Below are positions 57,860 to 64,000 of a stretch of 64,000 nt of DNA, in pieces. A program made the translations under genes and the position numbers. The notes beneath the pieces were generated by a model, which was given only the letters and a program-made list of their open reading frames with translations, did no database searches and was not told the origin of the DNA. Each line of letters opens with the position of its first letter. Within the stretch, counting starts at the first letter, position 1. The stretch is from Escherichia coli (lineage in GTDB: Bacteria; Pseudomonadota; Gammaproteobacteria; Enterobacterales; Enterobacteriaceae): NCBI GenBank assembly GCA_025336685.1, contig GCA_025336685.1_4717.1; one strand, 5' to 3'.

Positions 57860-60418
57860 TTACTGCTCTTCACGTTCCAACAGATACTCGGAAGCGGTAA
57901 TACCGTTTACCGTACGTACCGCTTTCAGACGAGTATCGTCACTCAGAATCACGGTAACAGACTGCAGACCTTTTACTTTGGTCTCGAAGGTCTTGAATAC
58001 CTGATCCAGCATACGAGCAATGCTTGGGTTGGTTGCAGCCGATGCGTGAGTGTAACCGTTCTGGTTCAGCTTCAGAATCTTGGCGTTGGTTGGTACACGA
58101 AGAACAACATGCGGACGCATTGCGAACACACTGTGGTTAAACCAGTAAGCATCGTTACTATCTTCGTCAGTGACGATGTCTGGATTAACACGCATGTCTT
58201 CGGTAGCCGCACCCGCCAAACGACGTTCGATTTCGTCAGCATCCAGAGAGCCGTCCTTCTCCAGTTCTGCACGATACTCACTCATGGCAACCAGATGACG
58301 TTCACGATTCGCTGCAGATTTTTCGTGAGCGGCTTTCAGGTAGTCATGCATGTTGTACAGTTCTGCCATGGAAAGACGAATGTTCCACTGACCTTCGCCG
58401 TCACGATTGCAGTAGAGACACTTCAGCATGTTGACCCAGGTGTAGTAGCAATTGGAGAACTCATCTTCAATGAACTTCTGATCCATTTTAAGATCGTGAA
58501 TCAGCCAACCGGACAGTTCTCCGATATCATCAACGAAGCTAGAAATGGTGGTTTCAGAGAAGTTCTTCGGTACGATACGTTTGATCAGCTTGTTAACGTC
58601 TTTGGTCATGCTATCATTCAGGAAATGCCAGATACGCAGAGGAATGACATCACGATACTGTTGCATGATCTGACGATAAGCTTTGATATCGTCGCTACGA
58701 CCTTTATCAATAGACAACGCGTCCAGGAATTCATGGATAGCATCCAGCTCTTTGTCGGTATAGGTTCCCAGATAGGAATTGACCGTGGCAAGGAATGCTA
58801 ATGCGTCGTTTTGGTTGACGTCGGTGTTGGTCTGCTGAATGATCGCTACTGCAGCTTTGGTTTCAGCATCCTCAACGCTTGACGCTGCGATTGCGTCGGT
58901 AACAGTAAACAGTTTCATTTCGCGCTGTTCGCCGACAACGATCGGTTCGCGTTGAACCGGTTTGTTAAGACTAACGCGAACAACTTCTGCTTGCGCGATA
59001 CGATCCAGTTTTACCATTTCCTGCTCCGCCATACGACGAGCGGTCGGATCTGATTCAAGTTCGATGTATTCCACTTCTTCCTCCGTGAGGGATGTAATGT
59101 CAACAATGGTTTCATGAAGAATTCCGTTTTCGTCGATACGTGCTCGACGAGCGAAGTGTCTGAAGTCATACAACGTTGGCCAGCGACAATTAGGCGCATA
59201 GTCTTTGGCCTTCAGACGCATCTGCATAAATTCTTCATGTTGAACAACACGACCGTAACGCTTAGCATCTTCGGTCGCATCAATTGGATTAACGGTCTTT
59301 GTTACCGTAGCAGAACGAGCCGTACGAATGGGTTCCGGTTTAGTCTGCACTGGTTCAGGTTGAACGGATTTCTGTTGTCCAGCCTTAACATGCCATTCGG
59401 GTTCTTCGTACCGTTCAGCAAATTGCTCGGCTGCTGCAAAGATATCATTGATACCACCAATATCTCCTTCTGGATTCGTCGAATATATCCGTGGTTGCGG
59501 TGCCTCGTAACGCGGCGCTGAGGTAGCAGATGCGTCGTTAACGACAGGATCGTCATCGCCAACATCATACAAACGGTTGAACGCACAATCCTTCGAATCG
59601 ATGTACGATGGAGTTTGTGGTTGGATAACCGTCGGTCGAGGCTGTGCGCCGTATCCCGGCATTGTTGGAGCCATACCACGCATAACTGCTGGGTTAGGTT
59701 GGTATTGTGGTTGTGGGTAGGTTCCGCCATACGTGGGATATGCAGGCTGTTGCGGTTGACCGTACCCACCACCAACCATCGCATTTGCTTGCGGTCCACG
59801 GTAAGTCATCCCCAGTTGCATCACCTGTTGCTTCAGACCGCGGGACTTCTGCGCTATTTGTGCTAGACTCCCACTTTTATTTAGCTGCGTGTACTTATTC
59901 GCGGCTTCCGGGTTAATGCGCGATAATTCAATCGCACGATAATACTCCGGGTATTGATTGGCTTCAAAGAGCCACGTTACAAGGTGATACAGCGCAACTG
60001 TGCTCACAGCAGCAGAGACGATCTGGTCGTTGGACGCATTCTGCGGCATCGGGTTGATGTAAGAGAATACGTTCCAGCAACAGTCTTCAACAAGCGATTC
60101 CATCATCATGTCGTTATTGGTGTAACGTGAGACGAACTCGGTTTGTATTTTATCCTGTTGGGCGAAGTCTTTCAGGACATTGAAGACAGCTTGACGGATT
60201 TTGACGATCGTCGCTTCTTGGGTGATGAAGTTATAGTTCTGCTGATATGATGGTTGCTGGTACTGTGGTGGTTGATAGGTGTTATTCGGGTATGCGCTGT
60301 ACTGCGGTTGCTGGTACTGTTGTTGGCGAACCTGTTCAGCCGCATAATTAATCGTACTCGCATAAGGGTTTTCGTTGTAGCCCATTTGCTGATACATGTT
60401 GTTACTGCCATTATACAT
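57860..60418 (-). CDS. Large hypothetical protein (852 aa) with Gln/Tyr/Pro-rich low-complexity N-terminal regions
   Basis: N-terminal 65 aa (YQQPQYSAYPNNTYQPPQYQQPSYQQNY) and a second QPxY-rich segment around aa 215-270. Confidence 0.55.
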   Translation of the reverse strand: MYNGSNNMYQQMGYNENPYASTINYAAEQVRQQQYQQPQYSAYPNNTYQPPQYQQPSYQQNYNFITQEATIVKIRQAVFNVLKDFAQQDKIQTEFVSRYTNNDMMMESLVEDCCWNVFSYINPMPQNASNDQIVSAAVSTVALYHLVTWLFEANQYPEYYRAIELSRINPEAANKYTQLNKSGSLAQIAQKSRGLKQQVMQLGMTYRGPQANAMVGGGYGQPQQPAYPTYGGTYPQPQYQPNPAVMRGMAPTMPGYGAQPRPTVIQPQTPSYIDSKDCAFNRLYDVGDDDPVVNDASATSAPRYEAPQPRIYSTNPEGDIGGINDIFAAAEQFAERYEEPEWHVKAGQQKSVQPEPVQTKPEPIRTARSATVTKTVNPIDATEDAKRYGRVVQHEEFMQMRLKAKDYAPNCRWPTLYDFRHFARRARIDENGILHETIVDITSLTEEEVEYIELESDPTARRMAEQEMVKLDRIAQAEVVRVSLNKPVQREPIVVGEQREMKLFTVTDAIAASSVEDAETKAAVAIIQQTNTDVNQNDALAFLATVNSYLGTYTDKELDAIHEFLDALSIDKGRSDDIKAYRQIMQQYRDVIPLRIWHFLNDSMTKDVNKLIKRIVPKNFSETTISSFVDDIGELSGWLIHDLKMDQKFIEDEFSNCYYTWVNMLKCLYCNRDGEGQWNIRLSMAELYNMHDYLKAAHEKSAANRERHLVAMSEYRAELEKDGSLDADEIERRLAGAATEDMRVNPDIVTDEDSNDAYWFNHSVFAMRPHVVLRVPTNAKILKLNQNGYTHASAATNPSIARMLDQVFKTFETKVKGLQSVTVILSDDTRLKAVRTVNGITASEYLLEREEQ

Positions 60419-60453: not shown

Positions 60454-62250
60454 TCAATCGATTATGTCACGATCGTTAATTTCTACAATTTCTTCATCGA
60501 ATCGACCGACGTCTTTCTTCAAGCCTGCATTTGTTGCTGCAACGTCATTTGCGATTTGTGGGGTAACGATTAACCGACCACGCTCATCGATAGGTGCGTA
60601 CATACTGAACTTCTGACGTCCGGTTGGTTCGGAGTGTGGAAGATTCAGATAGCTTGCACAGAACGGGATGGAACCACTAACCAAACGACTCTCGTCAGCC
60701 AATGCAGCACCGCCTGCGTTTTGGCTCTGGAGAACAACATGCGTGCTCACTTTGAACAGCATGCAATCACCAGGTGACTGAATCGATGTTGCCACTTTCT
60801 CACGTTTATCACGATTGCTCTGGATATTGAGAATCGCTTCCGTTGCAACTTGATTTCGCAACGCCTTCTGTACATCGCGATTGGTCATCTCTTTACGGTT
60901 GTTCTGTCGTTTACCACGTTCCGTGGTTTTAAGATGGAACCCCAGTTTAAAGATGCTTTTACGCACATCCTCCATGACATATTCCAACACCATCAATTCC
61001 TTACCGAACATCGTCGTGGTATCAACACGACTCATTTCGATAGTAACATTGTCAATCAGATACGCCATAAATTCGTAGAAGTCGTCGCAAGGAATATTTT
61101 CCTGTTTGAACTTCTTCTGTTGAATTTCGTCAACGTAAAGATCGAGACTGTCGATGTGGTGGTTTACATCACGCAACAAACGCGCATCCGCATTGTTGTT
61201 ATTAAAGATAATCAAACCGAGTAATGTACGCCAATGGTCTGGCGCATTCGCGAACTCTTCAACCGGATAGTCTTCCGGGAAACGATCGTAATAACGGTCG
61301 ATGAGATATAAGAACGCACCGACAAGGCCAAGAACAATACGTTCCGTACCTCCACGTCTTACAGCGATTTGAATATCAGGATGTTTATAACGTACAGCGT
61401 TAGCGCTACGGCTTTTACCGCTTTTGCTGATACTAAAGCCTTTAGGAATAACCCCCATGGTGCGATAGATTACCCATTGGTCGCGCGGAAAATCACGTTC
61501 AGCAAGGTTCCGTCCGGTTACGGCTTCGACACCTGCAAAACGTCGGAAACATTCACCCACCCCATACTTCGCAAAGAGATAATGACCCAGTGTGGTTACG
61601 CTGGTGTGGTTGATGTTGTCACCGTTCACTTTACTTTGTTTGGTAAGATGATAGATTTGCGACCAGGGTAACGACAGATAATGACGATAATCGATACCCG
61701 TTGGTGTATCATTGCTCAGGAACTGATACGGTGTACGTTTAACCGTGATTTTGTCACGCGGAAGCATGATGAACGCCATGTCTTTCGTGTAACTGATTAC
61801 AGGGTCAGCGAGCACCGCACTGAGAATGAAGTTCGCACCACGTAGACGCATTTTACCACCCTGACCTACTGCGGGCAATAGGAGAGGATGTCGGATAATG
61901 CAGTAGTCCTTTCCCGGCTCACGGCGGTCACCTGATTCCATCGCACCGTACCAGCGGAATTCTAGCATCACCATAAACACGTCGGAAGGTGCAAGGTCGA
62001 AGGTCAGCTTACCGCTATCCTTCCCTTTGGTTTTCTTTCCTCCGCTTAAGTAGTGGAACTGTTCGCGGGCCATACAACGACGTAGGCCATGATACACCAG
62101 ATCCTTAGGTAAACTATCTTTGCTGTTCCGCCAAAGACGATCAACATAGGACTCAACATCTTGCATCTTATCGACGACGATGTTGCGTGCTATCTTCTCG
62201 TTCATCTTCGGTGCAAGCTCAGCGACAGCTTTGCAGAATCTAGGATCCAT
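60454..62250 (-). CDS. Hypothetical protein (598 aa)
   Basis: Long ORF; no motif confidently recognised. Confidence 0.5.
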   Translation of the reverse strand: MDPRFCKAVAELAPKMNEKIARNIVVDKMQDVESYVDRLWRNSKDSLPKDLVYHGLRRCMAREQFHYLSGGKKTKGKDSGKLTFDLAPSDVFMVMLEFRWYGAMESGDRREPGKDYCIIRHPLLLPAVGQGGKMRLRGANFILSAVLADPVISYTKDMAFIMLPRDKITVKRTPYQFLSNDTPTGIDYRHYLSLPWSQIYHLTKQSKVNGDNINHTSVTTLGHYLFAKYGVGECFRRFAGVEAVTGRNLAERDFPRDQWVIYRTMGVIPKGFSISKSGKSRSANAVRYKHPDIQIAVRRGGTERIVLGLVGAFLYLIDRYYDRFPEDYPVEEFANAPDHWRTLLGLIIFNNNNADARLLRDVNHHIDSLDLYVDEIQQKKFKQENIPCDDFYEFMAYLIDNVTIEMSRVDTTTMFGKELMVLEYVMEDVRKSIFKLGFHLKTTERGKRQNNRKEMTNRDVQKALRNQVATEAILNIQSNRDKREKVATSIQSPGDCMLFKVSTHVVLQSQNAGGAALADESRLVSGSIPFCASYLNLPHSEPTGRQKFSMYAPIDERGRLIVTPQIANDVAATNAGLKKDVGRFDEEIVEINDRDIID

Positions 62251-62289: not shown

Positions 62290-63723
62290 TTACTTTTTCG
62301 ATGACGCCTTCTCAAGAATCTTGAAAAAGGTCATACCTATACCGACAACAGCCGCGGTTATACTCGCAGCGGCTTTCCAAACATCGACGTTACGTTGACG
62401 TCGTGCTTCTTCCGCTTCACGTTGTCTTTTTGCCTCTTCATCACGTCGACGTATCTCAGCAGCAAACTCGTCATGCTTACGTTTGGCTTCTTCGTCTCGA
62501 CGACGAAGTTCAGCGACGAATTCTTCATGTTTGCGTTTAGCCTCATCATCACGACGTTTTAAATCAGCTTGATAATCTTCGTGTATTTGTCTACGTAGAT
62601 CATCTTGACGTTTCATTTCGGCTTGGTGTTGTTCCATCCTACGTTTTTGTTCGTCTTTAAGCTGATCGAGTTCGGCTTTATGTTGTTCGTCGCGCAGCTT
62701 TGCGTCGGCGCGATGCGCTTCATGCATCTGTGCGATAACTGCCTTGTGTTCATCCGCCATACGTCGCATTTCAGCCATCACCCCTTTAAGGGTTTCTTCT
62801 GACGACTTACGTTCGTAGCTGCGTTGGTCGAAATCATTTTTGTAGGCTTCTTTTTGGATGGGATCGCGCCAATGCAATGCCGATTCACGCGTCGGAAAAA
62901 CATTGTACTTCCACATCTCTTTTTCCAAATCTTCGACCGGTACGAAGATGGAGTCATTATTCCCGAAGGTAACCAACATACCTGGCGCGCCTGCTCCATT
63001 CGTTGGTTTTATTTCGAACGCTTTCCCCAGCACGTTAACCCATAGGCTATACGGATTATGAAAGTCGGGTGGCGTCCAGTGGATAGTGAGTTGCGTTCCG
63101 AGAATCCGGAAACCCTCTGTCTTTCCTGTTAAACTACGCGCACATGTTGCGATGTAGGGGTGATCAATCCCTTTCGTAACATGGTCTGCGCTTTTGTATT
63201 CTCCTTTAACTTTTACGATTGCCACGTTGATTTGCGCGACATAAATAGGTTGATTAAAGTTCAACGTGTTGAGGTCAATTTGACATATCTCGTCCAGCGT
63301 ATCGTACCAGTCTTGCTGGTCTAATAGACGCGGTATTTTCTCTGTGTTAACGATGCGACGGATATGCGGTTTCCTTATCGCGTAACCTGTACCATTTTTA
63401 ACACGGAGTATATCCCGACGTCTACCCGCGTAGACGAAGTTTCTGAATGCACCATTCGCATTAGATACGTCATGGCTGTCAACTATTACAGGACTACGAA
63501 ATTTTGAACGTCGTACGATCCTGAATGTATTACTGTCCTCAACTCTACCAGGAATGTACTGGAACATATTGTCGGAGGTGATAACCAACACGGTATGGCC
63601 GGATTCATTAATACATGCCCACCCTAATTCCAGGTCATACAACGGTTCAGCATAACCGTCAATGCGATATGCGTACCATCCCCACGGTTCGAACGCGGTA
63701 TCACATATTGGCATGGAGGGCAT
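62290..63723 (-). CDS. Hypothetical protein with charged tandem repeats and C-terminal transmembrane anchor
   Basis: Three 19-aa RRRDEEAKRKH(D/E)EF(A/V)AE(I/L) repeats, then hydrophobic AAASITAAVVGIGMTFFKIL at the C-terminus. Confidence 0.5.
   Translation of the reverse strand: MPSMPICDTAFEPWGWYAYRIDGYAEPLYDLELGWACINESGHTVLVITSDNMFQYIPGRVEDSNTFRIVRRSKFRSPVIVDSHDVSNANGAFRNFVYAGRRRDILRVKNGTGYAIRKPHIRRIVNTEKIPRLLDQQDWYDTLDEICQIDLNTLNFNQPIYVAQINVAIVKVKGEYKSADHVTKGIDHPYIATCARSLTGKTEGFRILGTQLTIHWTPPDFHNPYSLWVNVLGKAFEIKPTNGAGAPGMLVTFGNNDSIFVPVEDLEKEMWKYNVFPTRESALHWRDPIQKEAYKNDFDQRSYERKSSEETLKGVMAEMRRMADEHKAVIAQMHEAHRADAKLRDEQHKAELDQLKDEQKRRMEQHQAEMKRQDDLRRQIHEDYQADLKRRDDEAKRKHEEFVAELRRRDEEAKRKHDEFAAEIRRRDEEAKRQREAEEARRQRNVDVWKAAASITAAVVGIGMTFFKILEKASSKK
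62385..62555 (-). repeat. Three imperfect 57-bp tandem repeats encoding the charged 19-aa repeat
   Basis: Units around 62387-62439, 62440-62495 and 62496-62549 share TCATCACGTCGACG...TTCTTCATG...GCGTTT words. Confidence 0.5.
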
Positions 63724-63895: not shown

Positions 63896-64000
63896 AAATT
63901 TTTTCTATTCGCAACGATAAACGGCATAAATCTCCCCCAACCCTTACGGGCTGAGGGAGGCTGACTTATGTATCACGGTGCCGGATGAATGTCCGCAATG

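Follow-up and report, generated by a model that had tools for sequence, protein, structure and literature searches.

The DNA analyzed here is a 64,000-nucleotide (nt) stretch deposited under Escherichia coli (GenBank assembly GCA_025336685.1, contig GCA_025336685.1_4717.1), hereafter called the window. Close to its end, a minus-strand open reading frame (ORF) encodes a 477-amino-acid (aa) protein which showed 98.3% identity in tblastn to Goslar_00040 (gp40) of Goslar, a nucleus-forming jumbo phage of E. coli. The protein is designated gp40 below. It contains an array of highly charged 18-aa units, and it is probable that this array belongs to a rod-like spacer of the ER/K type, which connects a predicted tail anchor at the C-terminus with the head of cg35, a core protein of chimalliviruses. 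The length of the spacer would evolve by whole units, and its most likely role would be to set the spacing between the phage shell and a membrane.

Period and Units of the Repeat

The initial annotation reported three 57-bp tandem repeats at this locus, encoding a charged triplet. A charged repeat is present, on the minus strand inside the ORF at 62290..63723, but its period is 54 nt (18 aa) and the boundaries that had been assigned are wrong. The figure of 57 bp was merely 171 divided by three. In the lag analysis of gp40 aa 321-445, lag 18 gave 44 identities (41%), while the maximum among the other lags from 3 to 39 was 24 identities, at lag 36, which is the double period. At the DNA level the identity was 51% at lag 54 versus 32% at lag 57. 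Even within the 171 bp first delimited (62385-62555), 70 of 117 positions matched at lag 54 and 40 of 114 at lag 57. Over aa 316-445, lag 18 gave 45 identities, a number reached in none of 20,000 shuffles that preserved the composition; across these, the largest count at any lag had a mean of 19.7 +/- 1.9 and never exceeded 32. The 18-aa repeat is not a product of chance and is highly significant.

Three clear units were recognized (Table 1); with three degenerate copies upstream of them, the array reaches 62724. The DNA copies of the units share 31-36 of 54 nt (57-67% identity). Neither Tandem Repeats Finder (score 30) nor a seed-based repeat finder reported the array, because the DNA copies are too diverged; the repeat becomes visible at the protein level or by lag analysis. 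The units are old duplications which have been kept at the protein level.

A terminator-like palindrome, CGACGTTACGTTGACGTCG, was observed at 62385-62403 on the plus strand, that is, inside the coding region and on the non-coding strand. It was rejected as a signal and is attributed to the CGT/CGA codons for arginine in the repeat.

Predicted Structure of the Repeat-Containing Helix

AlphaFold2, run on the single sequence, predicted one continuous helix from aa 309 to 474. The block means of the predicted local distance difference test (pLDDT) exceed 90 across roughly aa 340-430. The repeat had been described at first as probably alpha-helical, and the prediction bears this out. The residues D, E, K and R constitute 55% of aa 316-445, where the net charge is 0, and charged and hydrophobic residues make up 69% and 11% of the three clear units, respectively. 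The score for opposite-charge pairing at i/i+3 and i/i+4 was 0.57 in the clear units; the E4K4 and GCN4 controls scored 1.08 and 0.05, respectively. For the whole linker, the charge pairing reached z = 7.3 against shuffles. The helix thus combines the high E/K/R content and the excess of opposite-charge i/i+3 and i/i+4 pairs that are expected of a single alpha-helix (SAH) domain. A nucleic-acid-binding role of the R/K-rich repeat was ruled out by the net charge of 0 and the alternating signs.

Eighteen residues correspond to exactly five helical turns, so that the same face recurs in every copy. The maximum of the hydrophobic moment lies at 100 degrees per residue, or 3.6 residues per turn. 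The register table revealed a thin stripe with L, M or I at position 1 of the unit, A at position 8, H at position 12, and F or Y at position 15. When the clear units were checked for a coiled-coil core, 2-3 of the 5 expected core positions per unit were hydrophobic.

The Predicted C-Terminal Anchor and the Architecture of gp40

A membrane segment had been proposed behind the repeat from the outset. On hydropathy scales, gp40 indeed has a sole hydrophobic segment, aa 451-467 (AAASITAAVVGIGMTFF), and the C-terminal sequence of the protein reads ...DLKRRDDEAKRKHEEFVAELRRRDEEAKRKHDEFAAEIRRRDEEAKRQREAEEARRQRNVDVWKAAASITAAVVGIGMTFFKILEKASSKK. The top five 19-residue windows by hydrophobicity lie without exception at aa 446-471, and the best 17-mer, aa 451-467, lies 10 residues from the C-terminus. 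This 17-mer is the top Kyte-Doolittle window of the protein (1.76), has the lowest summed free energy on the Hessa scale (1.35 kcal/mol for 17 residues), and shows an Eisenberg mean hydrophobicity of 0.63. A tail-anchored protein has a single hydrophobic helix no more than about 30 residues from its C-terminus and no other such segment or signal peptide, and the hydropathy scales indicate this arrangement for gp40. The segment is a putative membrane-inserting helix.

AxxxG or GxxxG motifs occur in the anchors. A C-terminal helix of hydrophobic or amphipathic character was present in each of the 12 orthologues examined. In Goslar, P0016, P0017, RSF1, SPN3US and Derbicus, where P0016 and P0017 are two distant homologues described below, the C-terminus resembles a membrane-spanning segment (Eisenberg mean 0.60-0.70). 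gp40 therefore consists of a globular head (~308 aa), a rod (~140 aa) and a predicted tail anchor.

The narrow stripe on the rod permits another reading, in which a parallel coiled-coil stalk without supercoiling, of 18/5 and 11/3 periodicity, dimerizes or trimerizes gp40. The repeat would in that case serve oligomerization and its register would have to be preserved, and the small-xxx-small motifs of the anchors, seen as AxxxG or GxxxG, would pack together in the membrane. The continuity of the stripe in the register table and the maximum of the hydrophobic moment at 3.6 residues per turn agree with such a stalk. So does the proximal segment, which is 32% hydrophobic, and so do the natural length variants described below: all of their indels are 18 or 11 residues long, both of which nearly keep the helical phase, and the proximal helix of the 489- and 507-aa forms shows an 11/22 periodicity with I or L at a/d-like spacing. 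However, the clear units contain about 2 large hydrophobic residues in 18, and with 69% charged residues they fall well under a normal coiled-coil core, while indels of 18 aa are expected from the repeat unit alone, whatever its function. A coiled-coil stalk is possible, though rather unlikely.

Assignment to the Chimallivirus Core Gene cg35

In the annotation of Goslar, the gene for the major capsid protein, cg35, and the gene for the beta subunit of the non-virion RNA polymerase (nvRNAP) follow one another in this order on the same strand. The same order was found in every chimallivirus examined; the comparison covered Goslar, metagenomic relatives, PhiPA3, SL2, RSF1, SPN3US, RAY, Moabite, a Vibrio phage, Derbicus and Centimanus. 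The positional counterparts of gp40 in the other chimalliviruses are hypothetical proteins of 330-380 aa. The similarity was supported by hhalign against the RSF1 family (probability 92.6%, E 4.7e-7) and, with the N-terminal domain alone, against the PhiKZ gp122 group (probability 92.6%, E 4.4e-7, 225 columns). The hhalign comparison with the SPN3US/Derbicus pair alone stayed below significance. Foldseek against BFVD returned 28 matches at E<=1e-3, and the named ones are all uncharacterized proteins of jumbo phages or uncultured Myoviridae; 201phi2-1, RisingSun and Psa21 are among them at E around 1e-10. A published supplement on the core genome contains the line "cg35, gp040, gp122, gp001*, hypothetical" for Goslar, PhiKZ and RAY (PMC10299810). 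On the basis of these alignments and the conserved position, gp40 is assigned as the orthologue of the chimallivirus core gene cg35.

The N-terminal domain is the conserved part of the family, and its AlphaFold2 model is poor (pLDDT 54, with the single sequence and with a 19-sequence alignment alike). Foldseek of this domain against the PDB gave nothing below E 0.6. Sequence searches of the PDB with the protein, the family profile, and the PhiKZ and PhiPA3 orthologues found no relative. No Pfam family was above the threshold for gp40, and the only PHROGs match was phrog_7727, a family of unknown function. A one-residue indel with neighboring substitutions was observed near 63660-63680 (minus strand; gp40 aa 15-20) relative to GenBank Goslar (PW-GWYAY vs PWDGTHAY). 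These N-terminal differences indicate that the window comes from a close relative of Goslar and not from the deposited Goslar genome.

Early Expression and Published Data on Orthologues

RNA-seq of Goslar at 30 min with and without knock-down of chimallin has been reported (10.1101/2023.09.20.558163, Sup. Table 2). The genes gp037-gp040 were unchanged or slightly up, and gp040 showed a log2 fold change of +0.85 to +1.09 when the nucleus was blocked. Under the same block, the capsid gene gp041 (log2 fold change ~-4) and the structural genes dropped by 4-6 log2 units (10.1101/2023.09.20.558163). These data indicate that gp40 is an early gene, which is expressed from the stage of the lipid early-infection (EPI) vesicle and co-expressed with a polymerase subunit. 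A spanin or holin role was rejected. An i-spanin has its membrane helix at the N-terminus and a coiled coil in the periplasm, holins are small proteins that cross the membrane several times, and both are made late; in gp40 the hydrophobic helix is C-terminal, after a 450-aa region without a signal peptide, and the expression is early.

Both the GFP-ChmA and GFP-ChmB pulldowns and the proximity labelling of ChmA yielded PhiPA3 gp138 (PMC10643120). The identity of the protein as gp138 is presumed from the numbering, which matches NC_028999, where gene 138 is annotated as similar to PhiKZ gp122. ChmA and ChmB are cytoplasmic, and these partners of the PhiPA3 orthologue give indirect support for a cytoplasmic N-terminus of a tail-anchored gp40. 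In an antisense screen of PhiKZ, PhiKZ122 was treated as a core, uncharacterized gene; its knock-down had weak effects on plaques and on the ChmA level, both of which were lowered, and it was also named among the knock-downs that strongly affected transcription of the phage at 30 min (PMC12571901). Nothing relevant came from literature searches for Goslar gp40 or for chimallin in connection with a membrane anchor, and the literature searched contained no remark on cg35 ending in a membrane anchor or carrying a long rod.

In all chimalliviruses examined, the gene directly follows that of the major capsid protein, a position that could also suit a membrane-bound procapsid assembly factor, whose stalk would keep capsid or portal proteins off the inner membrane; reviews place capsid assembly on the inner membrane and name no anchoring factor. 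This idea was demoted because the Goslar RNA-seq places gp40 in the early, nucleus-independent block gp037-gp040, while the capsid gene is late, and a strong hairpin lies between the two genes. Further, gp40 is not mentioned among the virion proteins in the examined text and supplements of the Goslar virion structure and proteomics preprint, the PhiKZ122 knock-down affects the ChmA level and transcription and not progeny alone, and gp138 of PhiPA3 was detected near the shell. A procapsid role is very unlikely.

Unit-Wise Length Variation among Relatives

Sixteen relatives were found in a search of 5.8 billion proteins, and one more distant relative was added by an exhaustive search of 1.8 billion representatives. 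With tblastn against 50,697 phage records, Goslar alone was matched, also when the distant homologues were included as queries, and megablast against the complete RefSeq E. coli genomes gave no match. The gp40 family is rare at the sequence level. Goslar-like gp40 proteins (P0033-P0061; clusters of P0001, P0003 and P0010) are deposited under isolate assemblies of Salmonella, E. coli and Shigella; the contigs that carry them measure 235-248 kb and look like whole genomes of Goslar-like phages that were co-sequenced with clinical or food isolates.

The Goslar-like proteins fall into length classes of 460, 477/478, 489 and 507 aa, and their unit number is five, six or seven. Precisely one 18-aa unit is missing from the 460-aa form. 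An 11-aa insertion close to where the helix begins distinguishes the 489-aa form, and the 507-aa form combines this insertion with an additional 18-aa unit. The 18-aa deletion and the 18-aa insertion lie within 62563..62724 or at the 3' border of this interval. Calculated with 0.15 nm per residue, the rods of ~124, 142, 153 and 171 residues correspond to ~18.6, 21.3, 22.9 and 25.6 nm. Variation of the repeat number that changes the length of a stalk had been suggested for this locus. In-register 18-aa indels do occur among the relatives, but the three copies flagged then, which are the clear units, show the same count in all Goslar-like length variants examined; the changes are all located upstream of them, and the variation is slow. 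Neither an invariant repeat number nor a lack of predicted helix was found.

The junction of the 460-aa allele is informative. It joins ...RDEQH to ...AEMKRQ, in register and exactly at the motif EQH(K/Q)AE, which in the window is encoded by a pair of 18-nt direct repeats that is the best DNA direct repeat in the region (Table 1). This junction appears to be the signature of unequal recombination or slippage between neighboring units. The extra unit of the 507-aa form is diverged, with 36 of 54 nt identical to its neighbor, and orthologous copies of a unit are more alike than paralogous copies. The DNA copies are too diverged for rapid slippage, which points to slow unit-wise evolution. A slippage-prone contingency locus with copy number changing fast in phage populations, for which the coexistence of 489- and 507-aa forms in one 90%-identity cluster might speak, is highly improbable, since near-identical tandem units are lacking, as the identity between units, the silence of Tandem Repeats Finder and the diverged extra unit show, since orthologous copies are the more alike, and since all 14 complete members are 478 aa long among those listed (15 listed of 40 read) for the 208-member Goslar cluster.

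The degenerate units and the proximal helix form the fastest-diverging zone in sequence. The proximal helix of the 489- and 507-aa forms has an 11/22-residue periodicity. The gene of P0003 (L010 3001-4524) shows 95% DNA identity to window 62290-63723 in the head and 77% in the helix; its helix region resembles the 489-aa lineage, and the gene is mosaic. The mosaic points either to intragenic recombination or to a proximal helix that evolves much faster.

The distant homologues P0016 and P0017 (~27-32% identity) have the same architecture with shorter linkers, one of which ends in units related to those of Goslar, while the other is a plain ER/K stretch. The last unit and the juxtamembrane stretch (RDEEAKRQRE.E.A.RQR.VD.WKA) are almost invariant even in P0016, and the last unit is kept even in homologues that are 27% identical overall. 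At the identical residues of this region, the identity at the third codon position is just 0.50. A recent DNA transfer was rejected on this ground, and the value points to constraint at the protein level on the last unit and the juxtamembrane stretch. The linker, measured from a conserved F-x-T-x-x-E-A-type motif to the anchor, is ~45-105 aa long in the other chimalliviruses versus ~150-200 aa in the Goslar-like proteins. The comparison indicates that the 18-aa array is a lineage-specific expansion of a linker that every member has.

Features in and around gp40

The coordinates of the features are collected in Table 1. The neighbor downstream, gp39, has matches in 274 phage records; the RAY annotation calls it nvRNAP beta subunit 1. 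The hairpin upstream of gp40 reads CCUCCCUCAGCCC-GUAA-GGGUUGGGGGAG, followed by AUUUAU; it is GC-rich and lies between gp40 and the capsid gene, which runs off the end of the window. It is probably a terminator that parts the late capsid transcript from the early gp40-gp37 block, and in the phage Moabite a terminator is annotated at the same place. A simple terminator scan missed the hairpin because of its weak T-run. The gene gp38 (57860-60418, minus strand), a member of the early block, encodes 852 aa with low-complexity stretches rich in Q, Y, P and N at aa 1-65 and ~205-270. It has weak similarity (E 4e-4) to a PhiKZ gp124-like protein in the same relative position, and knock-down of PhiKZ124 also strongly perturbs phage transcription.

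Table 1. Positions in the window of gp40, its parts, and neighboring features
Feature	Position	Strand	Description and evidence
Whole gene gp40	62290..63723	-	477-aa ORF; assigned orthologue of Goslar gp40, cg35 (PhiKZ gp122, RAY gp1, PhiPA3 gene 138)
N-terminal globular domain, ~aa 1-308	62800..63723	-	Conserved part of the cg35 family; alignment motifs, hhalign, Foldseek
Proximal part of the long helix, aa 309-333	62725..62799	-	32% hydrophobic, 36% charged; AlphaFold2 helix and composition
Three degenerate 18-aa units, aa 334-387	62563..62724	-	Register table; zone variable in sequence and length among relatives
Three clear 18-aa (54-nt) units, aa 388-441	62401..62562	-	Boundaries 62509, 62455; 69% charged, ER/K-like
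Clear unit 1, aa 388-405	62509-62562	-	LKRRDDEAKRKHEEFVAE
Clear unit 2, aa 406-423	62455-62508	-	LRRRDEEAKRKHDEFAAE
Clear unit 3, aa 424-441	62401-62454	-	IRRRDEEAKRQREAEEAR
Juxtamembrane stretch RQRNVDVWK, aa 442-450	62374..62400	-	Near-invariant in distant homologues (alignment)
C-terminal hydrophobic helix AAASITAAVVGIGMTFF, aa 451-467	62323..62373	-	Predicted tail anchor; small-xxx-small motifs
Short basic C-terminal tail KILEKASSKK, aa 468-477	62293..62322	-	Translation; stop codon 62290-62292
Pair of 18-nt direct repeats, 16/18 identical, 54 nt apart	62617-62634 and 62671-62688	+	Encodes EQHQAE / EQHKAE; repeat finder
gp39, nvRNAP beta subunit (N-terminal part), PhiKZ gp123 orthologue	60454..62250	-	PHROG 2943 "polymerase", E 5.5e-120
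Strong hairpin upstream of gp40	63925..63970	-	-27.9 kcal/mol, z -5.1, 0/200 shuffles as stable

Comparison with Known Helical Spacers

The cg35 proteins, such as PhiKZ gp122, PhiPA3 gp138, 201phi2-1 gp202 and RAY gp1, share with gp40 the gene position, the N-terminal domain, a helical linker and a C-terminal helix. The linker of the Goslar-like proteins is 2-4 times longer than those of the family, is built of 18-aa charged units and leads to a clearly hydrophobic anchor, in contrast to the short linkers and amphipathic ends of PhiKZ and PhiPA3.

ER/K SAH domains are known from the lever-arm extensions of myosin VI and X, for example; more than half of their residues are E, R, K or D, with opposite charges at i/i+3 and i/i+4. 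The gp40 helix is similar in its charge pattern, in being predicted as an isolated long helix, and in being a plausible rigid spacer. It differs in the thin hydrophobic stripe with a conserved His, in the strict 18-residue unit, and in the direct junction with a predicted membrane anchor.

Tail-anchored coiled-coil tethers include golgins such as giantin and golgin-84; other membrane proteins of this general kind are ZipA, a membrane tether, and the tail-anchored E. coli proteins ElaB and YqjD. ZipA has an N-terminal anchor and a flexible, non-helical linker. As in the golgins and ElaB/YqjD, gp40 has a head, a long helical rod and a single membrane helix predicted at the extreme C-terminus, and the rod length would set the reach from the membrane. 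Unlike a member of these groups, gp40 has no sequence relationship to the tail-anchored tethers. Helical rulers form another group: the length of Braun's lipoprotein Lpp sets the width of the periplasm, and phage tape-measure proteins are helical length rulers. gp40 resembles them in its stepwise length, by units of 18 aa that each add 2.7 nm, whereas the wide range of cg35 linker lengths argues against a tight ruler.

A metagenomic protein, P0019 (locus L019, gene 1459-2349), has the same unit length of 18 aa or 54 nt. Its unit, IRKRDEEYQKKEEERAAE, is identical to the Goslar unit at ~12 of 18 positions. Unlike gp40, it contains 6.6 near-perfect 54-nt copies (L019 1660-2017, 94% match), which represent a recent expansion, and it lacks a C-terminal hydrophobic segment, a cg35 domain and any Pfam family. 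The resemblance to the Goslar unit may be convergent. Two other matches of the exhaustive search, P0018 and P0020, are unrelated low-complexity proteins.

Discussion

It is probable that gp40 carries a spacer rod. The repeats would make up the third nearest the membrane in one uninterrupted, extremely charged alpha-helix of ~140 residues, which arose through old duplications of an 18-residue unit. The face of each unit would combine a dense network of opposite charges at i/i+3 and i/i+4, of the ER/K type, with the thin L/A/H/F stripe, and the helix would be rigid and monomeric. The rod length would shift by whole units, of 2.7 nm per 18 aa, through unequal recombination between homologous positions of neighboring units. 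The rod would most likely serve to keep a domain associated with the shell at a fixed distance from a lipid membrane, which would be that of the EPI vesicle or the inner membrane. The spacing role is suggested by the early expression together with nvRNAP beta and by the presence of the PhiPA3 orthologue beside the chimallin shell. In kind, the gp40 repeat is an ordinary feature, a charged helical spacer of five-turn units, and it is the context that gives it interest.

A more specific model can be proposed tentatively, although it is unlikely. In this model, gp40 is a connector: its C-terminus sits in the lipid of the EPI vesicle or of the inner membrane, its N-terminal domain binds the nascent chimallin/ChmB lattice, and the rod sets a gap of ~19-26 nm. 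The shell would be nucleated and the genome handed over across this gap, and the unit-wise length changes would tune it.

Several observations weigh against a spacer that tethers the shell to a membrane. The C-terminus is amphipathic (Eisenberg 0.44-0.53) and not clearly membrane-spanning in PhiKZ, PhiPA3, RAY, Moabite, a Vibrio phage and Centimanus. The shell proximity comes from a distant orthologue without a clear membrane-spanning segment and not from Goslar. In gp40 itself, the 17-residue core is short and rich in Ala and Gly, with basic residues on both sides, so that the insertion and the topology are putative. Knock-down of PhiKZ122 has a weak phenotype, which a polar effect on the neighboring polymerase gene, gp123, might explain. 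The approximately four-fold range of linker lengths in the family makes a precise ruler function doubtful, and a membrane tether is hard to reconcile with the rotating nucleus of Goslar late in infection. Finally, an oligomeric coiled coil without supercoiling would account equally well for the thin L/A/H/F stripe and for the 11/22 periodicity of the 489- and 507-aa forms.

The gene cg35 is one of ~70 core genes common to all nucleus-forming jumbo phages, and it is annotated as hypothetical. The early expression in Goslar, the proximity to ChmA and ChmB in PhiPA3, the knock-down phenotype in PhiKZ, and the anchor-stalk architecture together make it a testable candidate for a membrane-to-shell connector. 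The natural alleles with 5, 6 and 7 units are ready reagents for asking whether the stalk length matters. The relation of the genome and the shell to the lipid EPI vesicle is an open question in the field. If the connector role is true, cg35 would be the missing physical link between the two compartments of the nucleus-forming phages.

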